Assembly: GCA_026954325.1 (NCBI GenBank)
Contig: JAIXKK010000145.1
Coordinates: forward strand, 260 to 64,259
DNA length: 64,000 nt
Direction of reading: 5' to 3'
DNA from: Bryobacterales bacterium
Lineage (GTDB): Bacteria; Acidobacteriota; Terriglobia; Bryobacterales; Bryobacteraceae
Positions 20,508 to 43,783 of this stretch are shown here, piece by piece; position 1 is the first letter of the stretch, and each line of letters begins with the position of its first letter. The notes below the pieces were generated by a model, which made no database searches, was not told where the DNA came from, and worked only from the letters and a program-made list of their open reading frames with translations. The position numbers were made by a program, and so were the translations under genes.

Positions 20508-21422
20508 ATGCGCTGCTCGCAAATCGCCGTCATTGGCGTGCCTCTCGATCTCGGCGCCGGACGCCGCGGCGTGGACATGGGTCCTTCCGCCATTCGTGTC
20601 GCCAATCTCGGCTCGCGTATTGCCGCCCTCGGCTACGAGGTGGAAGACTTGGGCAACGTGGAAGTGAAGCAGGCGGAAAGCATTCCCACCGGCGCATCCA
20701 CTGCCCGCTATCTGCACGAGATTGCTTTCACCTGCAAACGCCTCGCGGCCCTGGTGGAAAAGACGCTCGCATCCGGAAAAATGCCCCTGGTGCTCGGCGG
20801 CGATCATTCCGTCGCCATCGGCGCCGTTTCCGGCCTGTCGCGTCATTACCGGAAGCAGAAGAAATCCACCGGGCTGCTGTGGTTGGATGCCCACGCCGAT
20901 ATGAACACTCCGGAAACATCTCCCAGCGGTAATGTGCATGGCATGCCGCTGGCCTGCATCACAGGCTACGGTCCGCCCGAACTGACGCGGATCTACGGCT
21001 ATGAGCCGAAGGTGGATGCGCGAAACGTGGTGCTGGTGGGCATTCGGGACGTGGACCAACTCGAGAAGCCGCACGTCAGGCAATCCGGCGTGCATGCGTT
21101 CACCATGCGCGACATCGATGAGCGCGGGCTGCGCGCGGTGATGAAAGAAGCCATCGAAATTGCGTGCGCCGGCACGGAGGGCTTTCATCTTTCCTTCGAC
21201 ATGGATGCCGTCGACCCGCAAATCGCGCCCGGCGTCGGCACTCCGGTGCGCGGCGGCATCACCTACCGCGAAGCTCATCTCGCCATGGAGATCGTCAACG
21301 ACTCGGGCCGCATGCTCTCCATGGAAATGGTGGAAGTGAACCCGGTCATCGACGAGCGCAACCGCACCGCCGAGCTTGCGGTAGAGCTGACCATGTCCGC
21401 CCTGGGGAAGAGGATTCTGTGA
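20508..21422 (+). CDS. rocF: arginase
   Basis: GGDHSVAIG, WLDAHADMNTPETSPSGNVHGMPLA and SFDMDAVDPQIAPGVGTPVRGGITYREAH are classic arginase Mn-binding motifs, very close to Bacillus RocF. Confidence 0.92.
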   Translation: MRCSQIAVIGVPLDLGAGRRGVDMGPSAIRVANLGSRIAALGYEVEDLGNVEVKQAESIPTGASTARYLHEIAFTCKRLAALVEKTLASGKMPLVLGGDHSVAIGAVSGLSRHYRKQKKSTGLLWLDAHADMNTPETSPSGNVHGMPLACITGYGPPELTRIYGYEPKVDARNVVLVGIRDVDQLEKPHVRQSGVHAFTMRDIDERGLRAVMKEAIEIACAGTEGFHLSFDMDAVDPQIAPGVGTPVRGGITYREAHLAMEIVNDSGRMLSMEMVEVNPVIDERNRTAELAVELTMSALGKRIL

Positions 21423-23841: not shown

Positions 23842-26800
23842 TGCGCCGAAAGCCTGCCATGCTGCTGGTGGTGGCGGCCGTACTGGGATTGATTGCGGCC
23901 GCGCCAAACAAGGAAGATCTCCTCTGGCAATACCGGAATCGCGGGAAAGCCTTCTACGAAAACCCCACCACGCAAGCGCAGGCAGTGGACGAATTCAAGA
24001 AAGCGCTCGACCTTGCGCCCAATTCTATTCGCGAACGTCTCAACTACGGTCTGGCGCTGCTGCGCGCGGGCAGAACGGCGGAGGCCATCACCGAACTCAA
24101 GAAGGTGCGGCAGCAGGATCCCAAGCTGCCGCACACCTGGTTCAATCTCGGCATTGTCTACAAGAAAGCCGGCGAAATGGAACAGGCCGCCGCCATGTTC
24201 GAGCGCATGGGGCAACTGGCGCCGGACGATGCCGTCACCCAATACAACCTCGGCGTCCTCTACAAGCTTCAGGACAAGCTGCCCGCCGCCATGGAGCGCT
24301 TCGAAAATGCCGCGCGATTGGACCCCAGCCTCGCCGCGCCGCGCTTCCAACTCTATAACGTGTACCGCCTTTCCGGAAAGCGCGAGGAAGCGATGAAGCA
24401 ACTGGCGCAATTCCAGGCCCTCAAGAAAGCGCAGGAAATCTCCGGGAACACCGAGGACATGGAGTGGAATGAATACGCCGAAATCTACGATCCCATTGAC
24501 CCGTCCCTCTCCACCTTTGACGCGGCCGATTCCGCCCCGCCCCGATTCACCAGGCGCAAGATCGGCCCGGGCGTTTCCGAAGCGCAGGCGCTGGTCTGGA
24601 ACTTCGATAACGGCGCGCGCGCCGATCTTCTGGTGTGGGGCGCTTTCGGCGGCGGCCGCTTGTATCGCGGCGGCGTCACTTCCGTGCAAGCGCCGCAACT
24701 GGCCCCCGGCCGGGCATTCTTCGCGGGCGATGCCGATAACGACGGCTTCGCCGATCTCTGCATGTTGACCGCCGCCGGCGCGGAATTGCTGTGGAATCGC
24801 AGAGGCTCCCTCGAGAAAGCGCCCCATCCGCTGGCCGAAGGCGCGTTCTCGAAAGCCATCTGGGTGGATTACGATCACGATTACGATCTCGATCTCCTCC
24901 TGCTTGGCAGGAAGACCGTACTCCTGCGCAACCAGGGCGGCGGCGGGTTCGTGGACCGCGGTTCCGCCCTGCCGTTCGTCAACGCGGAAGCCGTGGACGG
25001 CGTTTCCTTCCGCATGATTCCCGATAGCAAGTCGAACGATATCCTGATCGCTTACCGGGACAGATCCGCCGTCCTCTATCGCGACCGGCTGGCAGGGAAG
25101 TTCGAAGCCGTTCCCATGCCGCTGATCCCTCCGGGCGCGGCGCACCTGCGCGTGTGGGACTGGAACCATGACGGCGCGCTTGACCTCGCCTTCACCGCCG
25201 GAGGGAAGTTGCATTTACTGGCCAACCAACACGGCGCATGGAAGGAGCAGGCCGCGCCTGCCGTGGCCGATGCGGCCTTCTGCGACTTCAACAACCTCGC
25301 GGTGACTGAACTTTGCGCCGGCGGCCAGGTCTACCCTTTGATCGGCGCGCCGCGCAAAATGGAAGGCCTCGATACGCCCATCGCCATCGCCGATTTCAAC
25401 GCGGACGGCCGCGCGGATGCCGTCTCCGCCGATCCCTCGGGAACGTGGCTTCACGAAAACGCGACACCGGCCAAGAACCGCTGGTTCAGCGTAAAACTCG
25501 ACGGCGTGAAAAACCTGAAGCTCGGTAGCGGCGCCGAGGTGGAAATCAAAGCCGGCCGCCGCTATCAGAAGAAACTCTATGAAGGCTATCCGCTGCTGTT
25601 CGGCATGCGCGGCTATGCGCTCATCGACACCGTACGCATCACATGGCCGAACGGTCTCATCCAGAACGAACCCAGGCAGGCGGTGGGCCGCATCGCGGAA
25701 TACAAGGAAGCACAGCGCCTGTCTGGCAGTTGCCCCATGATCTACACCTGGAACGGGCGCGAGTTTTCCTTCCTCACCGATGTGCTCGGCGTCGCTCCCC
25801 TGGGCGCGAGTTCCGGAGACGGCAAGTACTTCCCCACCGATCACGACGAGTACGTTTCGATTCCGGGCGAAGCGCTGCGCGCTCGCGACGGGTACTACGA
25901 CCTCCGCATCACCGAGGAACTGGGCGAGGTCACTTATCTCGACCACCTGAAACTGATTGCTCTTGATCATCCGGCGGACGTCGAAATTTACTCGAACGAT
26001 AAATGGAAATCGCCGCCGTACCCCGATTTCCGGCTGTATCAGACTCAGCGCCGCGTCTATCCCTTGCGCGCGAGGGATGGCAAGGGGACGGATGTCCTCG
26101 CCCGCATCCGCGCGCTCGACCGGGTCTATGCGGATACCTTCCGCCGCACGATGAGGAACACCGCGGAAACCCACTCTATCGAACTTGATTTCGGACCTGC
26201 CGCTCCCAATCAAGGGGCGTTCCTCGTCCTCACCGGATGGGTGGATTGGGCCGATGGAAGCACGTTCCTCAAGGAATCCCAGGAGCCGGGGAAAGCTCTC
26301 GTTCCACCGTACCTGCAAGTCCGCGACCGCAACGGCGAATGGCGCACCGTCATCGAAGACATGGGGATCCCATCCGGCAAGACCAAGGCCATCGCTGTCG
26401 ATCTTTCCGGCAAATTCCTGTCCTCCTCGCGCGAAGCGCGGATTGTCACTAACCTGTGCGTCTATTGGGATGAGATCTTCCTTGGCGTCCAAACCGCGCA
26501 GCCGCGCGTTCATATGCGGCCCATCGCCGCCGCCCAGGCGGACCTCGCTTTCCACGGGTTCTCCAAACCCCTCATCCATCCGGAACGCCGCCAGCCGGAA
26601 ATGTTCTTCTACAACCCCGCGGGTTCCACCTCTTCCTGGAATCCCACACCCGGCCGCTACACGCGCTACGGCGATGTGAAGATGCTTCTCGAGAGCGTAG
26701 ATGATATGTTTGTCATCATGGGCTCCGGGGATGAATTGCGCGTCCGATTTTCCGCGGCCACGCCGCCGCCCCAGGGGTGGAAGCGTGATTTCCTCCTTTA

Positions 26801-26996
26801 TGTGGATGGATGGGCCAAGGACAGCGACGCGAACACCGCCTTCTCCCAATCAGTGGAGCCGCTGCCGTTCCACGGCATGACTCAATATCCTTACGCCGCG
26901 CCGGAGCGCTACCCCGAGGATACGGCGCACAAGGCTTATCAGGATTCCTATAACACGCGCCCCGCGCTGCGGCTGTTGCGATCGATAGCACCATGA
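23841..26996 (+). CDS. TPR + FG-GAP/VCBS + ASPIC/UnbV-like large secreted protein
   Basis: TAATG overlap with the upstream stop. Signal MRRKPAMLLVVAAVLGLIAA and several TPR units. FG-GAP-type Ca-loop motifs (GDADNDGFADL, DYDHDYDLDLLL, DWNHDGALDLAF, DFNADGRADAV). UnbV-like NRWFSVKLDGVKNLKLGSGAEVEIKAG...ITWPNG. Confidence 0.8.
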   Translation: MRRKPAMLLVVAAVLGLIAAAPNKEDLLWQYRNRGKAFYENPTTQAQAVDEFKKALDLAPNSIRERLNYGLALLRAGRTAEAITELKKVRQQDPKLPHTWFNLGIVYKKAGEMEQAAAMFERMGQLAPDDAVTQYNLGVLYKLQDKLPAAMERFENAARLDPSLAAPRFQLYNVYRLSGKREEAMKQLAQFQALKKAQEISGNTEDMEWNEYAEIYDPIDPSLSTFDAADSAPPRFTRRKIGPGVSEAQALVWNFDNGARADLLVWGAFGGGRLYRGGVTSVQAPQLAPGRAFFAGDADNDGFADLCMLTAAGAELLWNRRGSLEKAPHPLAEGAFSKAIWVDYDHDYDLDLLLLGRKTVLLRNQGGGGFVDRGSALPFVNAEAVDGVSFRMIPDSKSNDILIAYRDRSAVLYRDRLAGKFEAVPMPLIPPGAAHLRVWDWNHDGALDLAFTAGGKLHLLANQHGAWKEQAAPAVADAAFCDFNNLAVTELCAGGQVYPLIGAPRKMEGLDTPIAIADFNADGRADAVSADPSGTWLHENATPAKNRWFSVKLDGVKNLKLGSGAEVEIKAGRRYQKKLYEGYPLLFGMRGYALIDTVRITWPNGLIQNEPRQAVGRIAEYKEAQRLSGSCPMIYTWNGREFSFLTDVLGVAPLGASSGDGKYFPTDHDEYVSIPGEALRARDGYYDLRITEELGEVTYLDHLKLIALDHPADVEIYSNDKWKSPPYPDFRLYQTQRRVYPLRARDGKGTDVLARIRALDRVYADTFRRTMRNTAETHSIELDFGPAAPNQGAFLVLTGWVDWADGSTFLKESQEPGKALVPPYLQVRDRNGEWRTVIEDMGIPSGKTKAIAVDLSGKFLSSSREARIVTNLCVYWDEIFLGVQTAQPRVHMRPIAAAQADLAFHGFSKPLIHPERRQPEMFFYNPAGSTSSWNPTPGRYTRYGDVKMLLESVDDMFVIMGSGDELRVRFSAATPPPQGWKRDFLLYVDGWAKDSDANTAFSQSVEPLPFHGMTQYPYAAPERYPEDTAHKAYQDSYNTRPALRLLRSIAP

Positions 26997-29725
26997 ATTC
27001 ACGCTGGTTCCCCGCACTCACCGTCCTCCTGCTGCTCAACGTGGCTTACGTCGCCGCGCTGCCATCAGCCACCATCTTTTATGTAGCTAACGTGCTGCTT
27101 CATCTCGTGCTCGGCGTGGTCTTCATAGGCCTGCTGCTCTGGCGCTCCCGCCCGGCTGCATTGCGCTTCAGCGGCGCGGCGTTGACCGGACTGTACCTCA
27201 TGGCGCGCGGCGCCACCACCGATCAGCGCTGGTGGCTCTATGCCCACGTCGTGCTCGGCTTTGCCGCCATGGTGTGGCTGTGGTTCGCCCTCCGGAAGCT
27301 GATGCCGAATCCCGGCCGCGCCATACCGGTGTGCCTCGCGATTCTCGCCCTCGCCGCCGGCTCGCGTCTCCTGCCGCGGCGCGCTCCGCAAACAATAAAC
27401 ACGGGCGAGGCGCCGGTCACCATGCAGGGCGAAGGCGAAGGTCCCAGCGGCCATTTCTGGCCGTCCTCCTCGCGCACCAATGTAGGGCTGGTCCCCTCCA
27501 CATACTTCATGGATTCCGAGCACTGTGGTTCCTGTCACAAGGACGTTTACGAGCAGTGGAAAGGGTCCATGCACCACTTCGCCAGCTTCAATAATCAGTT
27601 CTACCGCAAGTCGATTGAATACATGCAGTCGGTTCAGGGGACCACCAAGCCAAGCCGCTGGTGCGCCGGGTGCCATGACCATGCCCTGTTCTTCAACGGC
27701 AGGTGGGAGAAGCCCATCAAGGATCAAATCGACACCCCCGAGGCGCATATCGGCCTTTCCTGTGTCTCCTGCCACTCCATCGTCAAGGTGCACAACACGA
27801 TGGGGAATGCCGCCTTCACGCTCGATTACAACTGGCTGCACAAGATTGCCGCGAGCAAGAATCCTTATATCCAGCACTTTGAGAAGTTCGTCACCTATCT
27901 CAACCCGGAACCGCACCGCCGCACCTTCCTCAAGCCCCTCCACCGCGATTCCGCCGAATTCTGCTCCTCCTGTCACAAGGTTCACCTGGATGTGCCGGTG
28001 AACAACTACCGTTGGGTTCGCGGATTCAACGACTACGACAACTGGCAGGCGAGCGGCATTTCCGGGCGCGGCGCGCGCTCTTTCTACTACCCCCCAAAAA
28101 GCCTCACCTGCACGAACTGTCACATGCCGGAAGTGAAATCGAACGATCCCGGCAACCGCGCCGGCATGGTGCATAACCACCGTTTCCCCGGCGCGAACAC
28201 CGCGGTGCCCTACGTCAACGAGGACGAAGAGCAGTTGGCGGCGACGCGGGATTTCCTCGAATCCGGCTTCATCTCGGTGGACATCTTCTCCGCAAGCCCG
28301 GTGGAGACGTCGCCGCGTGAAGTGCAGATGGTGCGCCGCGCCGGAGAAGCCACGCCGGCGGCCTTAACCACCTTCGCCGTGGGTGAGGAGGCCGAAGCCA
28401 GCGGTCCTGTCCTGCTGCGGGAAGTGGGCCGGGTCGCCGCCCCGCTCGACAAAGCGGGAGTGAAGCTTCAGCCGGGCGAAACCGTGCGCGTCGACGTCGT
28501 CGTGCGCACGAAAAGGATCGGCCATTTCTTTCCAGGCGGCACCGTCGACGCCTTCGACATCTGGCTGGAACTCGACGGCAAGGACGCCGCCGGACGGCAG
28601 ATCTTCTGGAGCGGCTGTGTCGAAGACGAAGGCCGCGGACCGGTGGAAAAAGGCGCCCACTTCTACCGCTCCCTGCAACTCGATGGCGACGGCAACCACA
28701 TCAACAAGCGCAACGCCTGGCAGACGCGCAGCGTGCTGTACGTCCGCATGATCCCGCCGGGCGCGGCCGATACGGCGCATTACCGCGTCCATATTCCGAA
28801 AGACGCCAGGGGCCCCATCACGCTGAAGGCGAAATTGAACTACCGCAAGTTTTCCTGGTATTACACGCAATTCGCCTATGCCGGACAGCCGAAGCCCGGG
28901 CAGGATGCGAGCCTGGTCAACCTCGAACACGACAGCCGCGAATTCACCTTTGAGCCGGCGAACATTCCTTCCAATGTTTCCGGCAAGATCAAGGACCGCA
29001 TTCCTGACCTGCCCATCATCGTCCTCGCCAAAGCCGAGGCGAAACTCGATCTCGCCGCCCCAGGCGAGAAAACCGAGTGGAGGCAGGTGATCCGCGGCGA
29101 AGACTACGAGCGCTGGAATGACTGGGGCATCGGCATGTTACTGCAGGGCGACCTCAAGGGGGCCGAGTACGCGTTCCATAAGGTGATGGAAGCCAAACCG
29201 GACTACGCCGACGGACCTCTGAATGTGGCCCGCGCCCTCATCCAGGAAGGCGAAACCGGCGCGGCGAAGCCTCTCCTCGAGAGGGCGCGCTCCATCAATC
29301 CCAAACTGGCGCGCATCCATTTCTTCCAGGCCATGGTGGAGAAGTCCGATGGCGACTATGACGCCGCCATTGCGCATCTGGGCGAAGCCGCCGCGCGGTA
29401 TCCGGAAGACCGCGTGGTGCTGAACCAGCTTGGCCGCTTATATTTCCTCAAGCGGCAGTATGCCCAGGCCGTGCGGGCCCTGGAAAGCGTGTTGCGCATA
29501 GACCCCGAAGACCTTCAGGCGCACTACAGCCTGATGCTGTGTTACCGTGGCCTGAATGATCCGGCAAAGGCGGACCTCCACGCCAGGCTGTTCCAGCGGT
29601 TCAAAGCCAACGAGTCCGCCCAGACCATCACCGCCAAGCCTCGCCGGTTGAATCCCGAGGACAACAACGAAAGGCAGATGATTCACGATCACGAAAGCGT
29701 GCCCTTGAAGGTGTCCGGAACATGA
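26993..29725 (+). CDS. membrane-anchored pentaheme c-type cytochrome with C-terminal TPR domain
   Basis: ATGA overlap. About 4 N-terminal TM helices. Five CXXCH motifs (CGSCH, CAGCH, CVSCH, CSSCH, CTNCH). C-terminal TPR repeats (GAEYAFHKVMEAKPDYADG..., YDAAIAHLGEAAARYPED...). Confidence 0.85.
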   Translation: MNSRWFPALTVLLLLNVAYVAALPSATIFYVANVLLHLVLGVVFIGLLLWRSRPAALRFSGAALTGLYLMARGATTDQRWWLYAHVVLGFAAMVWLWFALRKLMPNPGRAIPVCLAILALAAGSRLLPRRAPQTINTGEAPVTMQGEGEGPSGHFWPSSSRTNVGLVPSTYFMDSEHCGSCHKDVYEQWKGSMHHFASFNNQFYRKSIEYMQSVQGTTKPSRWCAGCHDHALFFNGRWEKPIKDQIDTPEAHIGLSCVSCHSIVKVHNTMGNAAFTLDYNWLHKIAASKNPYIQHFEKFVTYLNPEPHRRTFLKPLHRDSAEFCSSCHKVHLDVPVNNYRWVRGFNDYDNWQASGISGRGARSFYYPPKSLTCTNCHMPEVKSNDPGNRAGMVHNHRFPGANTAVPYVNEDEEQLAATRDFLESGFISVDIFSASPVETSPREVQMVRRAGEATPAALTTFAVGEEAEASGPVLLREVGRVAAPLDKAGVKLQPGETVRVDVVVRTKRIGHFFPGGTVDAFDIWLELDGKDAAGRQIFWSGCVEDEGRGPVEKGAHFYRSLQLDGDGNHINKRNAWQTRSVLYVRMIPPGAADTAHYRVHIPKDARGPITLKAKLNYRKFSWYYTQFAYAGQPKPGQDASLVNLEHDSREFTFEPANIPSNVSGKIKDRIPDLPIIVLAKAEAKLDLAAPGEKTEWRQVIRGEDYERWNDWGIGMLLQGDLKGAEYAFHKVMEAKPDYADGPLNVARALIQEGETGAAKPLLERARSINPKLARIHFFQAMVEKSDGDYDAAIAHLGEAAARYPEDRVVLNQLGRLYFLKRQYAQAVRALESVLRIDPEDLQAHYSLMLCYRGLNDPAKADLHARLFQRFKANESAQTITAKPRRLNPEDNNERQMIHDHESVPLKVSGT

Positions 29726-31341
29726 AACCCGCCGCCTGTTTTTTCTTCGCCGCCGGCCTGCTCAGCGCCCAGGTGAAATTCACGGACATCACCCGCCAGG
29801 CGGGCATCCGCTTTGTGCACAACAACGGGAATTCCGGAAAGAAGTGGCTGCCGGAGACGCTCGGCTCGGGATGCGCCTTCCTCGATGTGGATGGCGACGG
29901 ATGGCAGGATATCCTGCTGATCAACGGCAAAGGGTGGACGGCGAAGTCCCCCAGGACCACACACAAGCTATACCGCAACAACCGCAACGGCACTTTCACC
30001 GACATCACCGCGGGCAGCGGCCTCGACGTGGAAATGTACGGCATGGGGGCCGCCGTTGCCGATTACGACAACGACGGCCGCGATGATGTCTACATCACCG
30101 CGCTTGAAGGCGACCGCCTCTTTCACAACGAGGGCAATGGAAAGTTTCGTGACGTTACCAAACCCTCCGGCATCAGCAATACCGGCTTTGGAACCAGCGC
30201 CGCGTGGTTCGATTACGACCGCGACGGCAAGATCGATCTGGTGGTTGCCAATTACGTTGAGTGGAGCCCGAAGCAGGATCTGTGGTGCTCCCTCGATGGC
30301 GCCACGAAATCCTACTGCACGCCGGAATCCTACAAGGGCGTTGCTCCGAAGCTCTTTCACAACCTCGGCAACGGCAGGTTCGAAGACGTAAGCCGGAAGG
30401 CCGGCATCGCCGGCCCCGGAAGCAAATCGCTCGGAATCGCGGTAATAGACTTCGATTCCGACGGCTGGCCCGATCTGTTCATCGCCAACGACACCCAGCC
30501 GAACAAGCTCTACCGCAACAACCGCAATGGCACGTTTACCGAGACGGGATTGACGGCCGGCGTGGCTTTCGGAGAAGACGGAATCGCCCGCGGGGCCATG
30601 GGCACGGACGCGGCCGATTATGACGGCTCCGGCCGGCCCCATCTTCTGGTGGGTAACTTCGCCAATCAGATGCTCGGCCTGTACCACAACGAAGGCAACG
30701 GACTATTCGTGGATGAAGCGCCCCGTTCCACCGTGGGCCGCTCCAGCCTGCTCAGCCTCACCTTCGCCGCCTTCTTCTTCGATTTCGACCTTGATGGCCT
30801 GCTCGACATCTTCTGCGCCAACGGCCATCTGGACCCCGAGATTGAACGCGTGCAGCCGAAGGTGAAATACCGCCAGCCGCCACTGCTTTTCCGCAACCTG
30901 GGGAAGGGCCGGTTCGCCGATGTATCGGGCGGCGTGGGGCCGGATTTCTCGAAACCCATGGTGGCTCGCGGAGCCGCCTATGCCGACATCGACCATGACG
31001 GCGACCTCGATGTTCTCATCACGGACAACGCGGGTCCGGCCGTGCTGCTGCGCAACGACGGCGGAAGCAGGAATCACTGGCTGCGCGTGAAACTCACGGG
31101 CACGAAATCCAACCGCGACGGAATCGGGGCGGCCGTGCGTGTCAAGACCGCCGCGGGCGCCCAGGTCCAGACGGTGCACAGCGGCTCGAGTTACTGCTCG
31201 CAAAGTGAACTCGCCCTCACCTTCGGTCTCGGGCAGGATGCCCGTGTCAACCAGGTGGAGATCGCCTGGCCCAGCGGCGCCGTGCAGCGGATCGCATCGC
31301 CAAAAACAGACCAGGTACTCGAAGTCATCGAATCCCGATGA
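29722..31341 (+). CDS. CRTAC1-family FG-GAP repeat / ASPIC-UnbV protein
   Basis: ATGA overlap. Seven FG-GAP-like loops (DVDGDGWQDILL, DYDNDGRDDVYI, DYDRDGKIDLVV, DFDSDGWPDLFI, DYDGSGRPHLLV, DFDLDGLLDIF, DIDHDGDLDVLI). UnbV/ASPIC C-terminus NHWLRVKLTGTKSNRDGIGAAVRV...GSSYCSQSE...EIAWPSG. Confidence 0.88.
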   Translation: MKPAACFFFAAGLLSAQVKFTDITRQAGIRFVHNNGNSGKKWLPETLGSGCAFLDVDGDGWQDILLINGKGWTAKSPRTTHKLYRNNRNGTFTDITAGSGLDVEMYGMGAAVADYDNDGRDDVYITALEGDRLFHNEGNGKFRDVTKPSGISNTGFGTSAAWFDYDRDGKIDLVVANYVEWSPKQDLWCSLDGATKSYCTPESYKGVAPKLFHNLGNGRFEDVSRKAGIAGPGSKSLGIAVIDFDSDGWPDLFIANDTQPNKLYRNNRNGTFTETGLTAGVAFGEDGIARGAMGTDAADYDGSGRPHLLVGNFANQMLGLYHNEGNGLFVDEAPRSTVGRSSLLSLTFAAFFFDFDLDGLLDIFCANGHLDPEIERVQPKVKYRQPPLLFRNLGKGRFADVSGGVGPDFSKPMVARGAAYADIDHDGDLDVLITDNAGPAVLLRNDGGSRNHWLRVKLTGTKSNRDGIGAAVRVKTAAGAQVQTVHSGSSYCSQSELALTFGLGQDARVNQVEIAWPSGAVQRIASPKTDQVLEVIESR

Positions 31342-31354
31342 GAGAATAAAATCC

Positions 31355-32290
31355 ATGCGAGTCGTCCTGGAAATCTTGGATGGCCCCTTGTTGGGCCGCA
31401 CCGTCGAACTGAATCCAGGCCAGTCGGTGTCCGTCGGCCGGACGGCCAAGTCCCAACTGATGCTTCCGCACGATAGTTTCCTATCCGGTATGCATTTCCA
31501 GATTGAATGCACCGAAACCGGCGCCATGGTGAAGGACTGCAACAGCAGCAATGGAACCTGGGTGAACGGGAACAAGATCCTGAACCAGCAACTTACGGAT
31601 GGCGACCAGGTGGCCGCCGGGCAAACACGATTCAAGATTCATCTCGAGGAAGCGCCGCAAACTCCCGAGGAGCAACGCCGTACTTCCACCGTTCTGTTCG
31701 CCGCGCCGAAGATCGAAGAATTGCAGGCCTTGGCGGCACAACAGAAAGTGGAGGTCTCCACCCTCACACCCGTGCAGCAGGCCGTCGTCAAGTACCTGCA
31801 GCTGCGTCCCGCCCCGCTCTACGCCATCCTTAACTCCAACATCGACGAACGCGTCCCTCACCTGCTCATCACCTCGGGCGAAGTCTACCAATTCCTCTCT
31901 GAAGGCCTGACTCTCGGCGACCAGATGCCCCCGGGTGTCTATCTCGTCTACCTGCCGGCCACCTCGCCCCTGCTCTCCAGGCTGGTGGCGGAAGGATGGG
32001 GCAAGCACTGGACGCTGTTCTTCACCTGCAACCACCCCTTCGGCGAGGTGAGGCAGCATTTACGGCAATTCCTCATCATGCAGACAGAAGAGGGCAAGCG
32101 ATTCTTCTTTCGTTACTACGACCCGCGCCTGCTGCAATATCTGCTGCCCTCCTGCTCGCCGCGCGAGATCACACAACTCTTCGGCCCCATCCAAAGTTTC
32201 CTTATGGAGGACGCGAACGATCCGGCGAATCTGCTGGAAATGATGGTCTCGCCGCAGGGCTTGATGGGTAAGGTTGTCAAACTGGGGTAA
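31355..32290 (+). CDS. FHA-domain protein fused to a DUF4123-like domain
   Basis: N-terminal FHA (GRTVELNPGQSVSVGRTAKSQLMLPHDSFLSGMHFQIE...DCNSSNGTWVNGNKI). C-terminal PLYAILNSNIDERVPHLL...WGKHWTLFF...FFFRYYDPRLLQYLLP...FGPIQSF matches the DUF4123 pattern as I recall it. Confidence 0.75.
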   Translation: MRVVLEILDGPLLGRTVELNPGQSVSVGRTAKSQLMLPHDSFLSGMHFQIECTETGAMVKDCNSSNGTWVNGNKILNQQLTDGDQVAAGQTRFKIHLEEAPQTPEEQRRTSTVLFAAPKIEELQALAAQQKVEVSTLTPVQQAVVKYLQLRPAPLYAILNSNIDERVPHLLITSGEVYQFLSEGLTLGDQMPPGVYLVYLPATSPLLSRLVAEGWGKHWTLFFTCNHPFGEVRQHLRQFLIMQTEEGKRFFFRYYDPRLLQYLLPSCSPREITQLFGPIQSFLMEDANDPANLLEMMVSPQGLMGKVVKLG

Positions 32291-32729: not shown

Positions 32730-33305
32730 ATGATTCCTCAATACAAAGCCCTTCTTGCGTTCCTCATCATCACTGCCGCCGCAACCGCCACCTTCCTCTG
32801 GGTGACACGAAATACCGCCAACAAAGAACGGCTGAACCCGGAGGCCGTCTCGAAACTCAGGAGCCGTTTCGCAATCACTTGCGCGCTGCTGCTGATCGCC
32901 GCCCTCGCTCTCACGCTTCCTCATTTACCTTACCCGCGTGGCTCCGAAATTCCGGACAAAGTGGTCTTTGTCGCGGCGAAGCAATTCGCGTTCGGGCTTT
33001 CGGAAGCCCCCATCGCCAGTGACGCACAGTGGGAGGCGGCCAGCCAGGGACCCGCTGTCCGTATCCCCGCCAACCGGTTGGTGGAATTCCGCGTCACCAG
33101 TCTTGACGTCAACCATGGTTTTGGCGTTTACAGCCCTGGCGGAACCCTCCTCGCGCAGACGCAGGCCATGCCGGGCTATGTCAACCGCCTGCGGTTGCGC
33201 CTCCAGAACCCCGGACGCTATCCGGTGCTCTGCCTGGAACTATGCGGGATGGAGCATCATAGCATGCGCGGCATATTCGAAGTCTTTGCAACGGGTAAGG
33301 AGTGA
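32730..33305 (+). CDS. heme-copper oxidase subunit II (CuA cupredoxin)
   Basis: Two N-terminal TM helices. Cupredoxin with the CuA ligand pattern DVNHGF...CLELCGMEHHSM (H...CxExCGxxHxxM). Confidence 0.85.
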   Translation: MIPQYKALLAFLIITAAATATFLWVTRNTANKERLNPEAVSKLRSRFAITCALLLIAALALTLPHLPYPRGSEIPDKVVFVAAKQFAFGLSEAPIASDAQWEAASQGPAVRIPANRLVEFRVTSLDVNHGFGVYSPGGTLLAQTQAMPGYVNRLRLRLQNPGRYPVLCLELCGMEHHSMRGIFEVFATGKE

Positions 33306-33309
33306 TCCC

Positions 33310-34785
33310 ATGTCTTCACCTACCTCCGCGAGCAGCGCCGCCACGCCCCGCCTTCGCAGAAACACGATGCTGTGGGCGCTCCTCGCCATGGCGCTCTTCC
33401 TGGTATCCACCTTGCTCGGATTGTTCCTCCGCTTGTTTCAAGGCAACTCGTTCCCGGCAGTGGAGCCCGTTTGGTTCTATTCGGCTCTCACGCTTCACGC
33501 CTTGATCATGGTAGGCGCGTGGTTCCTGGGCAGCATGGCCGGAGTCCACTACCTTCTTTCCCGTTACGTACGTCCGAGTTCCGCCATCTCCGAACTCGCC
33601 ATGGGCGGCAGCGTGGTTGGCGTAGTTCTGATTTCCATCAGCACGCTGCTGGGCAAGTTCGGCGTGGGCTGGTACTTCCTGTTCCCCTTGCCGCTCTATC
33701 CGAACGGCGCCTGGAGTCCATGGGCCACCATCGTATTCTTCGCGGGTCTGGCCATTCTTGCCGTTTTCTGGCTTGCATGGGTGCTCGATCTGCTTCGCGC
33801 CATCGCGCGCCGTTACTCTCTCTCGATGGCGCTGGGATGGCATATCCTGCGCGGAGCAAAGGAACCGGAGGTCCCGCCGCTGGTTCTGATCACCACGGTG
33901 AGCCTGGTGGTTGTCACCGCGGCATTGGTGGCCGCCGCCCTTGTCCTGGCGCTGTTCGTCCTGCATGGGTCCGGCCGCGCGAACGTGGATGCCCTGCTGA
34001 TGAAGAACCTCACGTTCCTGTTCGGGCACATCATTGTCAACATCACTCTCTACCTGGGAGTGGCCATCCTCTATGAACTGCTGCCGGCGTTCGCGGGCAG
34101 GCCGTGGAAGACGTCCTGGCTGGTTGCCTTTGCCTGGAACGCCGTCCTGTTGCTGGTCCTGTTTGCCTATCTCCACCACCTCTATATGGACTTCGCGCAG
34201 CCGCGCTGGGTGCAGGTGGTGGGCCAAACCGCTTCTTACTTTCTATCCTTGCCGGCCGCCGCGGTCTCCGTCTTTGGCTCTCTCGCGCTCATCTACCGCT
34301 CTGGCTTTCGATGGACAATGGCTTCCAGGCTCCTGGTCTGTGGCGTCCTCGGCTGGGTGATCGGCGGCATCGCGGCGGTTGTTGACGCCACCGTGGCGGT
34401 CAATTCCGTCTTCCATAACACTCTTTGGGTTCCGGCCCACTTCCATACCTATTATTTGATGGGTGTTGTTCTGATGGTTCTCGCGTTCTTCGATCATCTG
34501 AGCCGGGAACTGACCGGCTCGGACACGGATGTTCCAGCAGCCGGTTGGATTCTGAGTCTGCTGCTGCTGGGCGGCTACGGATTCCTGGCAATGTTCTACT
34601 ACGGAGGCGCGACGAGTGTTCCACGGCGGTTTGCCACCTATCCCGAGGAGACGCTCCAGGGCGTGATCCAGGCGCGAGTCGCAGCGGCGTTCGTCGTGCT
34701 GTTGCTCGCCGCGCTGGTGATCTATCTGTCGCGGATGGCGGCGCGTTGTCTGCGCGCGTTCGCGCTTTGCAGGAACGCCTCATGA
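33310..34785 (+). CDS. heme-copper oxidase catalytic subunit I, B-family-like, lacking the cross-link Tyr
   Basis: Collinear with T. thermophilus ba3 subunit I as recalled: LTLHALIMV (low-spin heme His), FGHIIVNITLY against GHPIVY (CuB His present, Tyr replaced by Asn), YLHHLY (CuB His-His) and HNTLWVPAHFH (heme ligands). Confidence 0.85.
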   Translation: MSSPTSASSAATPRLRRNTMLWALLAMALFLVSTLLGLFLRLFQGNSFPAVEPVWFYSALTLHALIMVGAWFLGSMAGVHYLLSRYVRPSSAISELAMGGSVVGVVLISISTLLGKFGVGWYFLFPLPLYPNGAWSPWATIVFFAGLAILAVFWLAWVLDLLRAIARRYSLSMALGWHILRGAKEPEVPPLVLITTVSLVVVTAALVAAALVLALFVLHGSGRANVDALLMKNLTFLFGHIIVNITLYLGVAILYELLPAFAGRPWKTSWLVAFAWNAVLLLVLFAYLHHLYMDFAQPRWVQVVGQTASYFLSLPAAAVSVFGSLALIYRSGFRWTMASRLLVCGVLGWVIGGIAAVVDATVAVNSVFHNTLWVPAHFHTYYLMGVVLMVLAFFDHLSRELTGSDTDVPAAGWILSLLLLGGYGFLAMFYYGGATSVPRRFATYPEETLQGVIQARVAAAFVVLLLAALVIYLSRMAARCLRAFALCRNAS

Positions 34786-35567
34786 CTTTCCCGCGTATTG
34801 CGGCATGTCTGGCAGCCGGCGCCGCGGCGTTGTGGGGGCAATCGCCGGCGGGCAGCCTCAACCAGCCTCCCAACGAGGATCTGTATCTCTACCATTCCGT
34901 GCCGGACATCCTGGTGCGGCCGGCGGGAAAGCCTGCCATGCCATTGTCCGAATTGTGGCGCGAGCGGCCGCTGCTCATCACCATGGTGTTTACCCGCTGC
35001 GCCGGCGTCTGCTATCCGTTTCTTCGCTCGCTTCGCACGGCAACGGAGTCGGCAGGCAAACCGCCATCGGGCTACGGCATCCTCGTTCTCAGCTTCGATT
35101 CCCGCGACACGGCGTCCGACATGAAGGCCGCCGCTGCCGGCATCGGCGCCCGCGCGGATGAGGGCTGGATCTTCGCGACGGCGGCCGAGGAGAGCGTCAG
35201 GCGTCTGGCGGAGGCAACCGGGTTCTGGTTCCGTTGGGACGGCGAGCGGCGCCAGTTTGATCATCCCGCGGTGCTGCTGGCCGTGAAGCATGGCCGCCTG
35301 GTGCGCCTCTTTACGGGAGGGCGCATCCCGGCGGAGTCTCTAGGCGCCATACTGCGCGATCTGGCCGGCGGCTTCGTGCCTTCCTATCCTCTGGCGGATA
35401 AGACTTCCTTCCGATGCTTCCAGTACAACGCCGCCACCGGAAGCTATTCGCTCGATTGGGGCGCAGTGCTGCTGGTTCTTCCGGGCGCCGCTGCGTTCCT
35501 CGCCGCGCTGCTCACGTTCCGCCCCTGGCGGCGGAAATGCGCCCGCGCCCCGTTCCAGGCGGCCTGA
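34782..35567 (+). CDS. SCO1/SenC-like thioredoxin-fold copper chaperone with C-terminal TM anchor
   Basis: ATGA overlap with subunit I. Signal-like N-terminus. FTRCAGVCYPF (CxxxC) plus a downstream FDHPAVLLAV His. C-terminal helix VLLVLPGAAAFLAALLTF. Confidence 0.7.
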   Translation: MTFPRIAACLAAGAAALWGQSPAGSLNQPPNEDLYLYHSVPDILVRPAGKPAMPLSELWRERPLLITMVFTRCAGVCYPFLRSLRTATESAGKPPSGYGILVLSFDSRDTASDMKAAAAGIGARADEGWIFATAAEESVRRLAEATGFWFRWDGERRQFDHPAVLLAVKHGRLVRLFTGGRIPAESLGAILRDLAGGFVPSYPLADKTSFRCFQYNAATGSYSLDWGAVLLVLPGAAAFLAALLTFRPWRRKCARAPFQAA

Positions 35568-40649: not shown

Positions 40650-42020
40650 ATGGCTATCGACTCGCGCCGGGAAGCGCTGCTCCGGCACACGTTCATCGAC
40701 TTCATGCAGACTGCGGAATTCCTCCGCCATCCGCTCATTTTCGAGCGCGCCGAGGGTCTTCATTATTGGGACATCGAGGGGCGCCGGTACTTCGACGCCA
40801 TTGGAGGCATTTTCGTGGCGTGTCTCGGCCACGGGCATCCGCGTGTCCTAGAGGCGCTGCGCGAGCAGGCCGGGCGGATGGCGTTCGCCCCCCCGCTGCA
40901 CGGGATATCGGACATCACGCTCGATTTTATCGAACGGCTCGGCGGCGTTGCACCCGGCAATCTGAAGTTCGTCAAGCCGTTCAGCGGCGGCTCGGAATCG
41001 ACGGAAGCGGCGATGAAGTTCGCGCGGCAGTATTTCAAGCAGACGGGCCGGCCGGGAAAGTATAAGTTCATCAGCCGGTATCACGGCTATCACGGCGGCA
41101 CGGGAGCGGCGATGGCGGCGAGCGGCACGGGGCCGCGCAAGACGAAGTTCGAGCCGCACATGGGCGGATTCCTGAAAGTGTTTCCTCCGAACCATTACCG
41201 GCGCTATTTTTCCGATTGGGACGAGTGCAACCGCTTTGCGGCGCGGGCGCTGGAAGACGTGATCATTCACGAGGATCCGGATACGGTGGCGGGGTTCCTG
41301 GTGGAGCCGGTGGGGAATACGGGCGGCATCATCACGCCGACGGTGGAATATTTCCGGATGATCCGCGAGATCTGCGATCGCCATGACGTGATGCTGATCT
41401 TCGATGAGGTGATCACGGGATTCGGCAAGACGGGTTCGATGTTCGCCGCGCAGACGCTTGGGGTGACGCCCGACATCATCTGCTGCGGGAAGGGACTCTC
41501 GAACGGGGTGTTTCCGATTGGGGCGATGATCGCTCGCGAGGACATGGCGGATGCGTTTTACGGCTCCGCGGAACAGAACCTGCAATTCGCGCACGGCCAC
41601 ACGTTCGCGGGCAATCCGCTGGCGGCGGCGGTGGGGATGGCGGTGATCGGGACCATTGTGGAAGAGCAACTGGACCTGCGCGCGCGCCGCATGGGCGATT
41701 ATCTGGCGTCGCGGCTGGAGCGGCTGAAGGAATACGGCGTGGTTCGGGAGGTGCGAGGGCGCGGGATCCTGCGGGGGGTGGAACTGGTGAAGGATACGAA
41801 CTCGATGGCGCCGTATCCTGAATTGGGGACTGCGCTGAAGCGCATCGCGGTGGAACAGGGCGTCATCCTTCGCGTGGATCCTTCCTGGTTTGCCGTGTCG
41901 CCGGCGCTGGTGGCTTCACAAGCCGATATCGACGAGATGTGCGATTTGATTGAGCAGTGCCTGGCGCAAGCCCTCGATGCCGTGCAGGTTCGGGCTGTCT
42001 CTTCCCGAGGCGGGGAATGA
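40650..42020 (+). CDS. class III (omega) aminotransferase, PLP-dependent
   Basis: YWDIEGRRYFDAIGGIFVACLGHGHP, GGSESTEAAMKFAR, LIFDEVITGFGKTGSMFA and CCGKGLSNG (PLP Lys). Confidence 0.9.
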   Translation: MAIDSRREALLRHTFIDFMQTAEFLRHPLIFERAEGLHYWDIEGRRYFDAIGGIFVACLGHGHPRVLEALREQAGRMAFAPPLHGISDITLDFIERLGGVAPGNLKFVKPFSGGSESTEAAMKFARQYFKQTGRPGKYKFISRYHGYHGGTGAAMAASGTGPRKTKFEPHMGGFLKVFPPNHYRRYFSDWDECNRFAARALEDVIIHEDPDTVAGFLVEPVGNTGGIITPTVEYFRMIREICDRHDVMLIFDEVITGFGKTGSMFAAQTLGVTPDIICCGKGLSNGVFPIGAMIAREDMADAFYGSAEQNLQFAHGHTFAGNPLAAAVGMAVIGTIVEEQLDLRARRMGDYLASRLERLKEYGVVREVRGRGILRGVELVKDTNSMAPYPELGTALKRIAVEQGVILRVDPSWFAVSPALVASQADIDEMCDLIEQCLAQALDAVQVRAVSSRGGE

Positions 42021-43783
42021 GGGTATTGGCTCTTTTTCTATCTCTGGCGGTTCAATTGCTTCCGCGGCAACTGTTCCGGGAGCGATGCGCGTCCTGCCAT
42101 GGGGAAGAGGCTCGGGGCAGCGCCAAGGGTCCGGGGCTTGCGATGAATCCGCGGGTGGCGAGGCAATCCGTGGAACAACTGCGGGCGTACCTGGAGCGCG
42201 GTAACGCGGGCGCCGGGATGCCCTCGTTTTCCGATCTGCCGCCGGCGGACCTGCTCACGCTCGCCAGGTACTTGCGCCGAATCAATGTGGAAACCATCGC
42301 CGGCCCGGTGACGTCCCCGGTGGCCGCCCGCAAGATCACGCCGCGCCCGCCGCGGGCGGGGGACTGGATCACTTACAACGGGGATCTGTCCGGTAACCGG
42401 TACAGTCCACTGAAGCAGATCACGGCCGCGAACGTCTCTTCGCTGAAACTGAAGTGGGTGTTTCCGATGGCGCATTTCGGGTTGGAGGTGACCCCGCTGG
42501 CGGCCGATGGGGTGCTGTATGTGACGGGGCCCAACCAGGTGTTCGCGCTCGATGCGCTCACGGGGAGTTCACTGTGGGAGTATTCGCGCCCGCTGAGTCC
42601 GGGAATGCTGGGCGATGCGAAACTCGGCACGAACCGCGGCGTTGCCCTGTTGCGCGACAAGGTGTTCTTCGTCACTGACAACGCCCATCTGCTGGCGCTC
42701 GAGCGCGCCACGGGCAGGCTGCTTTGGGAAACCGCGATGGCTCCTGCTTCCGGCGAGCGGCATCACTACGGGGGAACGATGGCTCCGCTGATCGTCCACG
42801 ATACGGTGATCGCGGGCGTGGCGGGCGCTGACGAAGGCATCCGGGGATTCATTGCGGCCTTTCACGCGGACTCGGGTGCGCTGGCCTGGCGGCGCTGGAC
42901 CGTGCCGCGAAGCGGGGAGCCCGGCATCGAAAGCTGGCAAGGTAAGGAGCCGGTGACGGGAGGCGGGTCCACCTGGCTTACGGGATCGTACGAGGCGGCG
43001 ACAGACACCCTTTACTGGGCTACGGGCAATCCCTGGCCCGACGGGGACGACCGGGAGCGTCCCGGCGATAATCTTTACACCAACTGCGTTCTCGCGCTGA
43101 ATGCGAGGACGGGGGACCTGAAATGGCACTATCAGTTCACGCCGCACGACGTGAAGGATCGCGACGCCACCGAGCCTAACGTGCTGGTGGACACGGTCTA
43201 TCGCGGCAAGCCCTCGAAGCTTCTGCTGCACGCCGATCGCAACGGCTTCTTCTATGTGATCGAGCGCGACAGCGGCAAGCTGCTTCTGGCCAGGCCGTTT
43301 CTGCGGCGGGTGGATTGGGCGGAGAGGATCGGCGCCGATGGGAGGCCGGTAGTGAAGGATCCGCGCGGCTGCCCGTCGGACGCCGCCAACTGGGATGCGG
43401 CGGCGTTTTCGCCCCTCACGCGCCTGTACTATGTGCTCGCGCTCGAGGAGTGCACCGGCAAGCCCACGGGCTATCCGGAGCAGACCGGGCAGCGTTTCCT
43501 GCGGGCTCTGGACATCGAGACGGGGAATATCGCGTGGGAGATTCCGCAACCGGGCCCGGCGCGCGCCAAGACGTGGTCCGGCGTGCTGGCCACGGCCGGC
43601 GGACTCGTGTTCTACGGCCGGCCGAATGGGGGCTTTGCGGCCGTGGACCAGCGCAATGGGAAGCCGCTGTGGGAATTTCCGGCGAATGTTCGGATGAAGG
43701 CTTCGCCCATGACCTTCACTTACGGCGGCAGGCAGTATATCGCGGTGGCCGCGGGGCCGAATATTCTTTGCTTCGGGCTTTGA
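42017..43783 (+). CDS. PQQ-dependent alcohol-dehydrogenase-like propeller with N-terminal cytochrome c domain
   Basis: ATGA overlap with the aminotransferase. CASCHG heme motif plus MPSF (Met ligand region). Then WITYNGDLSGNRYSPLKQI and repeated propeller motifs. Confidence 0.82.
   Translation: MRVLALFLSLAVQLLPRQLFRERCASCHGEEARGSAKGPGLAMNPRVARQSVEQLRAYLERGNAGAGMPSFSDLPPADLLTLARYLRRINVETIAGPVTSPVAARKITPRPPRAGDWITYNGDLSGNRYSPLKQITAANVSSLKLKWVFPMAHFGLEVTPLAADGVLYVTGPNQVFALDALTGSSLWEYSRPLSPGMLGDAKLGTNRGVALLRDKVFFVTDNAHLLALERATGRLLWETAMAPASGERHHYGGTMAPLIVHDTVIAGVAGADEGIRGFIAAFHADSGALAWRRWTVPRSGEPGIESWQGKEPVTGGGSTWLTGSYEAATDTLYWATGNPWPDGDDRERPGDNLYTNCVLALNARTGDLKWHYQFTPHDVKDRDATEPNVLVDTVYRGKPSKLLLHADRNGFFYVIERDSGKLLLARPFLRRVDWAERIGADGRPVVKDPRGCPSDAANWDAAAFSPLTRLYYVLALEECTGKPTGYPEQTGQRFLRALDIETGNIAWEIPQPGPARAKTWSGVLATAGGLVFYGRPNGGFAAVDQRNGKPLWEFPANVRMKASPMTFTYGGRQYIAVAAGPNILCFGL

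Follow-up and report, generated by a model that had tools for sequence, protein, structure and literature searches.

The window, a 64-kb stretch of DNA from a soil acidobacterium of the order Bryobacterales, carries a three-gene operon encoding, in this order, a cupredoxin-type subunit II, a haem-copper catalytic subunit I, and a SCO/SenC-like copper chaperone (Table 1). The ATG of subunit I at 33310 has AAGGAG 8 nt 5' of it, and the ATG of the SCO-like gene (34782) lies inside CTCATGACT, so that it overlaps the TGA of subunit I (ATGA); the preliminary description had noted a CxxxC protein coupled in this manner, and both the overlap and the motif (C73-x3-C77) are reproduced here. Across 80 loci drawn from a scan of GTDB species genomes, the order subunit II-subunit I-SenC, with the SCO-like gene downstream of subunit I, is conserved in 73. 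Coupled in translation, the three genes recur as a conserved module in many phyla. The next gene in the window encodes a DUF362 protein and runs on the other strand; a search for promoters and terminators flanking the operon returned nothing exceeding the shuffled expectation.

Table 1. Genes, motifs, and key residues of the operon, with positions in the 64-kb window.
Feature	Positions	Strand	Assignment	Remark
norS-like gene	32730-33305	+	subunit II, 191 aa	Pfam COX2, E=2.8e-8
CuA motif	33231-33266	+	CLELCGMEHHSM, C-x3-C-x3-H-x2-M	sole CuA-like motif in the window
norY-like gene	33310-34785	+	catalytic subunit I, 491 aa, haem-copper oxidase fold	Pfam COX1, E=1.8e-50
His63 (LTLH)	33496-33498	+	low-spin haem ligand	ba3 H72 by alignment
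His240	34027-34029	+	first non-haem metal ligand (CuB/FeB site)	ba3 H233; His in 40/40 clade representatives
Asn244 (GHIIVN)	34039-34041	+	replaces the cross-linked Tyr	ba3 Y237
Tyr248	34051-34053	+	family-specific Tyr, one helical turn below Asn244	ba3 counterpart Leu241
Tyr255-Glu256	34072-34077	+	Tyr255 equivalent to ba3 K-channel Tyr248	Glu256 conserved in part of the clade
His289-His290	34174-34179	+	second and third non-haem metal ligands	ba3 H282/H283
His377, His379 (HFH)	34438-34446	+	high-spin and low-spin haem ligands, respectively	ba3 H384 and H386
senC-like gene	34782-35567	+	SCO-family copper chaperone, 261 aa	Pfam SCO1-SenC, E=6.3e-5

Subunit II consists of two N-terminal transmembrane segments and a cupredoxin domain with a complete set of CuA ligands: H129 (in DVNHGF), C168, C172, H176, and M179. 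The full CuA site reported earlier for this subunit was recovered with the same ligands and coordinates in a protein that matches Pfam COX2, and of the 83 homologous genes compared, 82 retain the motif. The SCO-like protein contains H161 in addition to the C73-x3-C77 pair, and it ends in an extension whose features (C212, W226-G227, and a transmembrane anchor) are conserved among the 75 homologues measured.

In a MAFFT alignment, the six metal-binding His residues of subunit I pair one-to-one with ba3 H72, H233, H282, H283, H384, and H386, so that each of the six ligands first read from the DNA now has a counterpart in a characterised enzyme. The AF2 model of this subunit (pLDDT 82, pTM 0.86) was compared with known structures using Foldseek, which returned Thermus thermophilus ba3 as the best match and O2 reductases as all of the top 50; the TM-score to ba3 (0.75) is similar to, or slightly below, those to A-family oxidases (0.78-0.81). 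The fold of the catalytic subunit is B-family-like; its two haem sites are both present, and three His residues make up the non-haem metal site.

The residue that sets this active site apart is Asn244, which lies opposite the cross-linked Tyr in four independent alignments. HMMER places it opposite the Tyr of GHPEVY in mammalian A-family CcO subunit I chains and opposite the Tyr of GHPIVY in T. thermophilus ba3, and MAFFT, with the ba3 numbering verified (H233/Y237), places it at Y237. The preliminary description had matched GHIIVN to the ba3 motif and had allowed that a better alignment might restore a Tyr at the cross-link site; the match is reproduced by both programs, and all four alignments return Asn. 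In the fourth comparison, the GHxxxN/Y spacing is ungapped in every homologue aligned. Asn occupies the Tyr position in 17/17 homologues of a first set, in all 40 full-length representatives of a distant set, and in at least 347/360 closer homologues. Since Asn is invariant in a clade whose members share 30-55% identity, the substitution is not a matter of chance. Nor does a Tyr appear at the alternative helix VII site of the cbb3 enzymes, whose numbering we take to be Y251/H257 in P. stutzeri: the corresponding HH-6 position of subunit I is Val283, in agreement with the earlier reading, and there is no Tyr at H+4 either.

Around this site, the proton-conducting residues of ba3 are preserved in part. 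Tyr255 occupies a position that is Tyr in 38 of the 40 representatives, and the adjacent Glu256 position is Glu in 16/40. The MAFFT alignment replaces ba3 K-channel Ser309, Thr312, Thr315, and Tyr244 by Ala, Val, Phe, and Val, respectively; the residue opposite Ser309 is Ala316, and Ala or Val is found there in 26/40 clade representatives. No Glu is invariant across the clade, Glu187 being conserved in the close subclade only. Tyr248, by comparison with its Leu counterpart in ba3, is a hallmark of the family: it is Tyr in 36/40 representatives and accompanies the Asn in all motif-positive homologues, and any role that we give it is putative.

Among the families of Tyr-less haem-copper enzymes, these features resemble those of sNOR. 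This family corresponds to NorS/NorY, encoded by norSY-senC-orf1 in ammonia-oxidising bacteria, and occurs also in Ruegeria/'Silicibacter' pomeroyi, Deinococcus, and Geobacillus (Stein et al. 2007, Hemp & Gennis 2008, Murali et al. 2024). An appendix table (PMC8756737, after Hemp & Gennis 2008) gives Asn as the active-site residue for both sNOR and CuANOR/bNOR and enters 'Silicibacter' as an sNOR host, and sNOR is described as having a CuA-containing cupredoxin subunit II and as missing ba3 K-channel Ser309, with a conserved Glu elsewhere (PMC11214002). The window enzyme shares with sNOR the Asn at the cross-link site, the three His at the non-haem metal, the CuA subunit II, and the absence of Ser309 (Ala316), as published (PMC11214002), and its gene order is that of ammonia-oxidiser norS-norY-senC. 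Subunit I is 37.5% identical to the R. pomeroyi megaplasmid enzyme (GHVFIN) and 26.9% identical to ba3, for which the comparison with solved structures gave 23-24%. In a neighbor-joining tree (no bootstrap), the Asn clade is monophyletic and holds both the window protein and the R. pomeroyi enzyme, and the Tyr-bearing oxidases and Thermus ba3 fall separately; Tyr-bearing oxidases (FGHPVVY) appear among the search matches only below ~166 bits. A tree of the kind proposed as a check on the initial reading, in this distance-based form, sets subunit I apart from the Tyr-bearing O2 reductases. One branch originates from Cytobacillus (Bacillaceae) in a cluster look-up.

The window operon also differs from the described sNOR loci in several respects. 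It lies in a Bryobacterales host with N-oxide genes not nearby, and its SenC-like protein is longer, owing to the conserved C-terminal Cys/Trp-Gly extension and transmembrane anchor. No orf1 lies downstream of the senC-like gene, and a tblastn search with R. pomeroyi orf1 matched neither the window nor any of the other loci; orf1 seems to be lineage-specific rather than universal. That the SenC-like extension is a fused orf1 is ruled out, as it has no convincing similarity to the R. pomeroyi protein. The type members of the family are the NorY proteins of ammonia oxidisers, NE0684 and others; Nitrosomonas and Nitrosospira sequences were found neither among the listed matches to the window protein and its Burkholderiales and Ruegeria homologues, nor in the 80 scanned loci, nor in the cluster look-up. 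With the Ruegeria enzyme as anchor, together with published descriptions and the distance tree without bootstrap, and with ammonia-oxidiser NorY and Bacillus bNOR compared by description only, it appears very probable that the operon enzyme is a member of sNOR. This supports the preliminary description of a CuA-bearing, Tyr-less NOR-type enzyme and supplies the subfamily that it had left unassigned, on the strength of Asn244, the tree, the gene order, and the loss of Ser309. The sNOR family is already described; the window holds a clean and typical further example, which leaves existing knowledge unchanged.

The possibility that the enzyme belongs to another Tyr-less family, or is a misread B-family or cbb3 oxidase, is very small. 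One argument for it comes from bNOR, with which it shares the Asn (PMC8756737 table): the published active site of bNOR/CuANOR from Bacillus (Calidifontibacillus) azotoformans, which we compared by description, likewise has Asn for Tyr and a CuA partner subunit. However, bNOR is confined to Bacillales, keeps a K-channel closely similar to that of the B family, and is no close relative of sNOR, the likeness being convergent (PMC11214002); the Bryobacterales host and the replacement of ba3 Ser309, Thr312, Thr315, and Tyr244 in the window protein rule it out. The eNOR of Rhodothermus marinus, which is biochemically verified (PMC11214002), resembles the window enzyme in its B-family-like origin, its CuA subunit, and its lack of the Tyr, but it has an active-site Gln, a nearby Glu, and a B-type K-channel, and Gln at the Tyr position (PMC8756737 table) is incompatible with Asn244. 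The three His and the CuA site exclude gNOR, in which one CuB His has given way to Asp and the CuA ligands are missing from subunit II, and Asn244 together with His63/His379 excludes nNOR, with its cNOR-like Glu site and His/Met low-spin haem. The cNOR and qNOR enzymes (NorB) share the proposed reaction, 2 NO to N2O, and the absent Tyr cofactor, whereas they are C-family relatives with a Glu-ligated FeB, take electrons through a cytochrome c subunit or from quinol, and have no CuA; the CuA subunit here rules them out, and no NorB occurred among PDB matches at E<=1 or among the top 50 fold matches.

The same reasoning applies to the oxidases proper. The ba3 oxidase of T. thermophilus (PDB 1EHK and others) is the solved structure with the highest identity and matches in its six His, its CuA subunit II, and its equivalent of K-channel Tyr248; it differs in having Tyr237 in place of the Asn, in that the window subunit II has two transmembrane helices, and in that no subunit IIa was found. 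A B-family O2 reductase, with H-x3-Y in helix VI, is excluded by the GHIIVN reading. Homologues are named 'cbb3-type cytochrome c oxidase subunit I' at NCBI, but Val283 at HH-6 and the CuA partner rule out a cbb3 oxidase, no ccoO or ccoP genes occur in the window, and cbb3 chains are absent from the PDB sequence matches at E<=1; the NCBI label is a naming artefact. Asn244, the three-His metal site, the bis-His low-spin haem, the CuA subunit II, the acidobacterial host, and the loss of Ser309, Thr312, and Thr315 together depart from the defining residues of every one of these families.

The genomic context of the module varies with lineage. Pfam scans of ~33 of the larger proteins in the 64-kb window revealed no nir, nos, or nar genes; FNT and NsrR-type genes are likewise absent from it, and it has a single COX1 gene. 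In three acidobacterial and other relatives (L083, L086, L088) the module likewise stands alone. Relatives at ~49% identity, by contrast, show links to N-oxide metabolism. In a Rhodocyclaceae MAG, the cluster lies among nirS, a cupredoxin gene, nosR, nirF/N, nirDLGH, and an FNT transporter gene; nirS occurs within 6 kb of the cluster in three genomes, six loci have FNT directly downstream of it, and three have Rrf2 in the vicinity. The R. pomeroyi enzyme gene is preceded by an Rrf2 regulator, and after it come the SCO gene, orf1, and a gene for a formate/nitrite transporter. The suggestion that nir/nos genes be sought thus has a divided outcome: nirS and nosR do flank the cluster in some proteobacterial relatives, but the window has none. 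The number of homologues scored at E<=1e-5 exceeds 1000, and relatives are encoded in at least 560 of the scanned GTDB species genomes. KEGG labels these genes coxA.

We propose that the operon encodes a two-subunit, sNOR-type NorS/NorY enzyme that, with a dedicated SenC-like chaperone, reduces NO (probability about 0.6), and we put the chance that NO reduction is its physiological role somewhat above even. In the literature that could be searched, no sNOR proved to have been purified or assayed, and NO reduction itself is what we infer. [quoted passage not shown] In the proposed scheme, CuA would be reduced by a periplasmic cytochrome c or cupredoxin, and electrons would pass from CuA through the low-spin haem (His63/His379) to a binuclear centre composed of a high-spin haem on His377 and a metal on His240/289/290, which would perform 2 NO + 2 e- + 2 H+ -> N2O + H2O. 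Without the Tyr there would be no fourth electron for clean O2 cleavage, which points to the two-electron NO reaction. Protons may arrive by a modified K-type path that keeps Tyr255 and has lost ba3 Ser309, Thr312, and Thr315, possibly with help from residues specific to the family (Tyr248, Lys232-Asn233, and, where the clade carries it, Glu256); proton uptake by such a path could make turnover electrogenic. SenC would load copper into CuA, and the non-haem metal could be Fe or Cu; a copper chaperone of its own would suit an all-copper enzyme just as well as one in which only CuA needs assembly. The acidobacterial enzyme more likely serves stand-alone NO removal (detoxification or partial denitrification) than a local denitrification island. 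The absence of N-oxide genes from the window and the solitary module of its relatives speak against the NO reductase reading.

This isolation of the module would also suit a terminal oxidase, conceivably a high-affinity one, that reduces O2 without the canonical His-Tyr cross-link and might use Tyr248 or another aromatic residue as proton or electron donor. In N. europaea, the sNOR genes are induced 2.7- to 10.8-fold under O2 limitation, and the authors propose a high-affinity terminal oxidase (bioRxiv 10.1101/765727); in addition, among solved structures ba3 is the closest in sequence (23-24% identity), the top 50 fold matches are O2 reductases without exception, Tyr248 is widely conserved, and a copper chaperone lies within the operon. 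On the other hand, every characterised O2-reducing haem-copper oxidase carries the cross-linked Tyr (PMC11214002), the Tyr-bearing relatives of this Asn-invariant clade sit on separate branches, and nirS/nosR islands surround the proteobacterial relatives. Helix geometry further suggests that a Tyr 8 residues past the CuB His would sit some two turns off, out of reach of a covalent bond. We thus consider an O2 reductase unlikely, if still worth weighing; a more specific version, in which an Asn244...Tyr248 pair permits O2 reduction without a covalent His-Tyr and makes this a new high-affinity oxidase or a bifunctional O2/NO reductase of soil Acidobacteriota, is more speculative still.

A comparably doubtful alternative is that the enzyme acts on another small molecule (peroxide, other reactive oxygen or nitrogen species, or N2O), serves in sensing, or turns over NO as a side activity. 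Haem-copper sites have been adapted to new chemistry, as proposed for an NO dismutase and a putative N2O reductase (PMC11214002), the literature search returned no assay of the family, and the acidobacterial context is uninformative; however, the active site is as published for the experimentally supported bNOR (PMC11214002), and the cluster recurs beside nirS, nitrite transporters, and Rrf2 regulators. Furthermore, the electron-input chain is complete (CuA and low-spin haem), which favours a respiratory-type reductase over a sensor. Finally, the loss of a residue held essential to oxidase chemistry might be read as the mark of a decaying, non-functional oxidase, but all three reading frames are unbroken, with coupled translation and a strong Shine-Dalgarno sequence, every metal ligand is conserved, and the breadth of the family described above is accompanied by strong purifying conservation, so that a pseudogene is effectively refuted by the conservation data.

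The role of sNOR, in NO or in O2 reduction, is disputed, and either answer would have consequences. An oxidase that works through Asn244/Tyr248 would break the rule that O2-reducing haem-copper enzymes require a cross-linked Tyr. If sNOR reduces NO, as we favour, it would represent an unannotated N2O route in abundant soil bacteria, including Bryobacterales, Vicinamibacterales, other Acidobacteriota, Planctomycetota, and others; because annotation pipelines label these genes cytochrome oxidase (NCBI 'cbb3-type', KEGG coxA), denitrification inventories miss them.

Positions 32730-35567 carry three genes in one direction on the forward strand, encoding a norS-like subunit II, a norY-like subunit I and a senC-like SCO chaperone. 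The N terminus of subunit II contains two hydrophobic segments, and the ATG of the subunit I gene at 33310 lies 4 nt beyond the preceding stop codon, with AAGGAG 8 nt upstream. The coordinates in the preliminary description were all correct; the full CuA site that it assigned to subunit II is present with five ligands, and the SCO-like CxxxC protein that it noted is indeed coupled through an ATGA overlap, its ATG overlapping the subunit I TGA within CTCATGACT.

Coordinates of the oxidase operon and neighboring features
Feature	Position	Strand	Description
Gene 1, subunit II	32730-33305	+	191 aa; cupredoxin domain, Pfam COX2 match
CuA ligands of gene 1	33231-33266 (last four)		H129 (DVNHGF), C168, C172, H176, M179; last four in CLELCGMEHHSM; complete set
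Gene 2, subunit I	33310-34785	+	491 aa; Pfam COX1, E=1.8e-50
Gene 3, SenC-like	34782-35567	+	261 aa; C73-x3-C77, H161; SCO1-SenC barely over Pfam cut-off
Three translationally coupled genes	23697-31341	+	ATGA overlaps (26993-26996, 29722-29725); close upstream of the oxidase operon
FHA domain + DUF4123 protein	31139-32290	+	directly upstream of the operon
PQQ-dependent dehydrogenase	15064-17172	-	
PQQ-dependent dehydrogenase	41957-43783	+	N-terminal cytochrome c domain

HMMER comparisons with PDB sequences pair FGHIIVN of subunit I, without gaps, with FGHPIVY of Thermus thermophilus ba3 and with FGHPEVY of mammalian A-family cytochrome c oxidase chains. In a MAFFT alignment in which the ba3 numbering was verified (H233, Y237, H282/283, H384/386), H63, H240, N244, H289, H290, H377 and H379 correspond to ba3 H72, H233, Y237, H282, H283, H384 and H386, so that all six metal His ligands recognized earlier map onto ba3 ligands. 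The two methods agree in placing Asn244 opposite the cross-linked Tyr, as first proposed; judged from these alignments, the Asn at the cross-link position is genuine. The alternative Tyr of cbb3 enzymes, which lies six residues ahead of the HH pair (Y251/H257 in P. stutzeri), is replaced by Val283, in agreement with the earlier failure to find a Tyr in helix VII. An AlphaFold2 model of subunit I from 17 homologues was confident (pLDDT 82, pTM 0.86). In Foldseek, ba3 was its first match by E-value and its PDB chain of highest identity (23-24%), at a TM-score (~0.75) similar to or slightly lower than those of A-family oxidases (0.78-0.81); the top 50 matches included no NorB-type chain. The protein also falls far under every cut-off of the NCBIfam oxidase equivalogs.

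Comparison of homologues indicates that the Asn substitution marks a large, coherent clade. Of the candidates scored, more than 1000 are subunit I homologues at E<=1e-5, the nearest being Bryobacterales MAG proteins (99% and 90% identity); near-identical MAGs are JADLBG01, JABAQT01 and JADLBD01. When GTDB was scanned with a single genome for each species, at least 560 encoding loci turned up, in Acidobacteriota, Planctomycetota, Kryptonia, Calditrichota, Fervidibacter, Bdellovibrionota, Myxococcota, Beta- and Gammaproteobacteria and others. An alignment of 17 sequences shows Asn244 without exception. The residue is also present in the full-length representatives (40/40) of clusters that were built at 50% identity and group with the window protein, and in at least 347 of the 360 proteins that homology searches returned, the rest resembling regex mis-hits. 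Tyr-bearing (FGHPVVY) sequences appear only under ~166 bits and form a separate branch of a neighbor-joining tree, with ba3 likewise apart. Other hallmarks of the Asn clade are Tyr248, four residues past Asn244 (36/40 representatives), HHLYMDF (Tyr292, Asp294) and Lys232-Asn233.

The residue at the Tyr position is N in sNOR (Betaproteobacteria, Silicibacter, Deinococcus, Geobacillus) and in CuANOR/bNOR, Q in eNOR, D in gNOR and E in cNOR/qNOR (PMC8756737 appendix table, after Hemp & Gennis 2008). The active-site structures of sNOR and bNOR are alike by convergence, and bNOR is restricted to Bacillales; the B-type K-channel is retained in bNOR and eNOR, while sNOR lacks ba3 Ser309 and carries a Glu elsewhere; nNOR combines a cNOR-like site with His/Met ligation of the low-spin heme; and in gNOR a CuB His is lost, as is the CuA site (Murali et al. 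2024, PMC11214002). In the window protein, ba3 Ser309, Thr312, Thr315 and Tyr244 are replaced by Ala316, Val319, Phe322 and Val251, leaving ba3 Tyr248 (Tyr255) as the sole K-channel residue kept of those compared; both low-spin heme ligands and all three non-heme metal ligands are His, and CuA is present. Compared by published descriptions, the K-channel losses, His ligand set and CuA site rule out bNOR, eNOR, gNOR and nNOR, and sNOR fits.

Gene order points the same way. The ammonia-oxidizer cluster is norSY-senC-orf1, in which norS encodes subunit II and norY subunit I; the window shares the norS-norY-senC order but lacks orf1, and the order is common to the window and 73/80 loci among the matches listed. 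A plasmid tblastn search found a megaplasmid locus of Ruegeria pomeroyi DSS-3 (genus formerly Silicibacter), whose norSY-senC part lies in SPO_RS20760-20745. Genes follow one another there as Rrf2 regulator, CuA subunit II, catalytic subunit I (GHVFIN; 37.5% identity to the window protein, within the Asn clade), SCO, the hypothetical orf1, a formate/nitrite transporter (FNT) and cytochrome c. Anchored on this sequence and the published descriptions, we assign the window enzyme to sNOR with a probability of roughly 0.9; Asn244, clade, gene order and the loss of ba3 Ser309 together support the initial reading of a Tyr-less, CuA-bearing NOR-type enzyme and narrow it to an sNOR-type NorS/NorY/SenC module. 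A variant without SenC occurs on a Thermomicrobium (T. roseum) megaplasmid (L082, 4312-8106), ordered subunit II, subunit I (GHTLVN), FNT and a "cytochrome c oxidase assembly protein", which we presume may be CtaG-like. In proteobacterial relatives the CuA domain of subunit II can be preceded, within one polypeptide, by a cytochrome c domain (CAACH) at the N terminus (L062 4329-6008; L087 9010-9984); an in-frame CxxCH occurs in subunit II at 19/83 loci, and the window gene has none.

The SenC-like proteins keep the SCO copper ligands (R-C-x-G-x-C-x-P, SFD, His161) in 75 homologues (L002-L088), which also conserve a family-specific C-terminal extension (Tyr202, Cys212, Gly220, Trp226-Gly227, Pro234). 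This extension falls outside the Pfam SCO1-SenC model, ends in a transmembrane anchor (223-248) and does not resemble R. pomeroyi orf1; several homologues are undetected by Pfam. CuA assembly is the simplest predicted role.

The complete chain from CuA through low-spin heme to high-spin heme and three-His metal predicts a functional reductase that takes its electrons from the periplasmic side. Absence of the Tyr cofactor would leave the fourth electron for O2 cleavage missing; two-electron reduction of 2 NO to N2O needs no such cofactor, and bNOR, with the same published active-site structure, ranks among experimentally supported NO reductases (PMC11214002). Genomic context supports an N-oxide role for part of the family. 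One example is a Rhodocyclaceae MAG (L087, JAWKYW010000002.1) with an enzyme that shares 49% identity with the window protein; its stretch 5836-21425 runs nirS, EB_dh-like, cupredoxin, cytochrome c::subunit II, subunit I, SenC-like, FNT, GAF/BTAD regulator, nosR, nirS, cytochrome c, nirF/N and nirDLGH; denitrification islands also surround L058, L060 and L065. Among the matches listed, nirS lies within 6 kb of the cluster in three genomes, FNT directly follows SenC at six loci and an Rrf2 regulator is adjacent at three.

Several points counsel caution. The modules of acidobacterial relatives are solitary, in unrelated neighborhoods, and genes of the nir, nos, nar, FNT and Rrf2 kinds are all absent from the 64-kb window, as judged from searches that included Pfam scans of ~33 of the larger proteins. 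The neighbors of the operon include a pentaheme cytochrome/TPR/ASPIC cluster, comprising a TPR + FG-GAP protein, a 910-aa membrane-anchored cytochrome (five CxxCH, C-terminal TPRs, weak Cytochrome_C554 and MtrC-like matches) and an ASPIC/UnbV FG-GAP protein, together with a DUF362 protein and the FHA-DUF4123 protein, which likely starts at Met73 of its ORF and has no evident connection to the oxidase. The PQQ dehydrogenases lie farther away; speculatively, they could donate electrons in the periplasm to a pool of cytochrome c on which CuA enzymes draw. The searchable literature yielded no biochemical characterization of any sNOR, and in the N. europaea transcriptome sNOR rises under O2 limitation, and the authors argue for a high-affinity oxidase (bioRxiv 10.1101/765727). 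We consider it improbable that the enzyme reduces O2 in the absence of a cross-link by means of its conserved Asn-Tyr248 pair. Weighing both sides, we hold sNOR membership firmly but favor NO reduction as the physiological role by a modest degree.

The sNOR family has been described since 2007-2008, with 344 members counted in GTDB genomes (2024 survey, PMC11214002), and the module in this Bryobacterales acidobacterium is a further member. Its value is chiefly for annotation and ecology, since databases name these genes cbb3-type or coxA: NCBI calls Asn-type subunit I (proteins P0001, P0004, P0011 and P0123, loci L081 and L082) "cbb3-type cytochrome c oxidase subunit I". These proteins are not cbb3-type and probably not oxidases either, and the label is a systematic misnomer that conceals a candidate NO reductase, in a family that is a candidate source of N2O.
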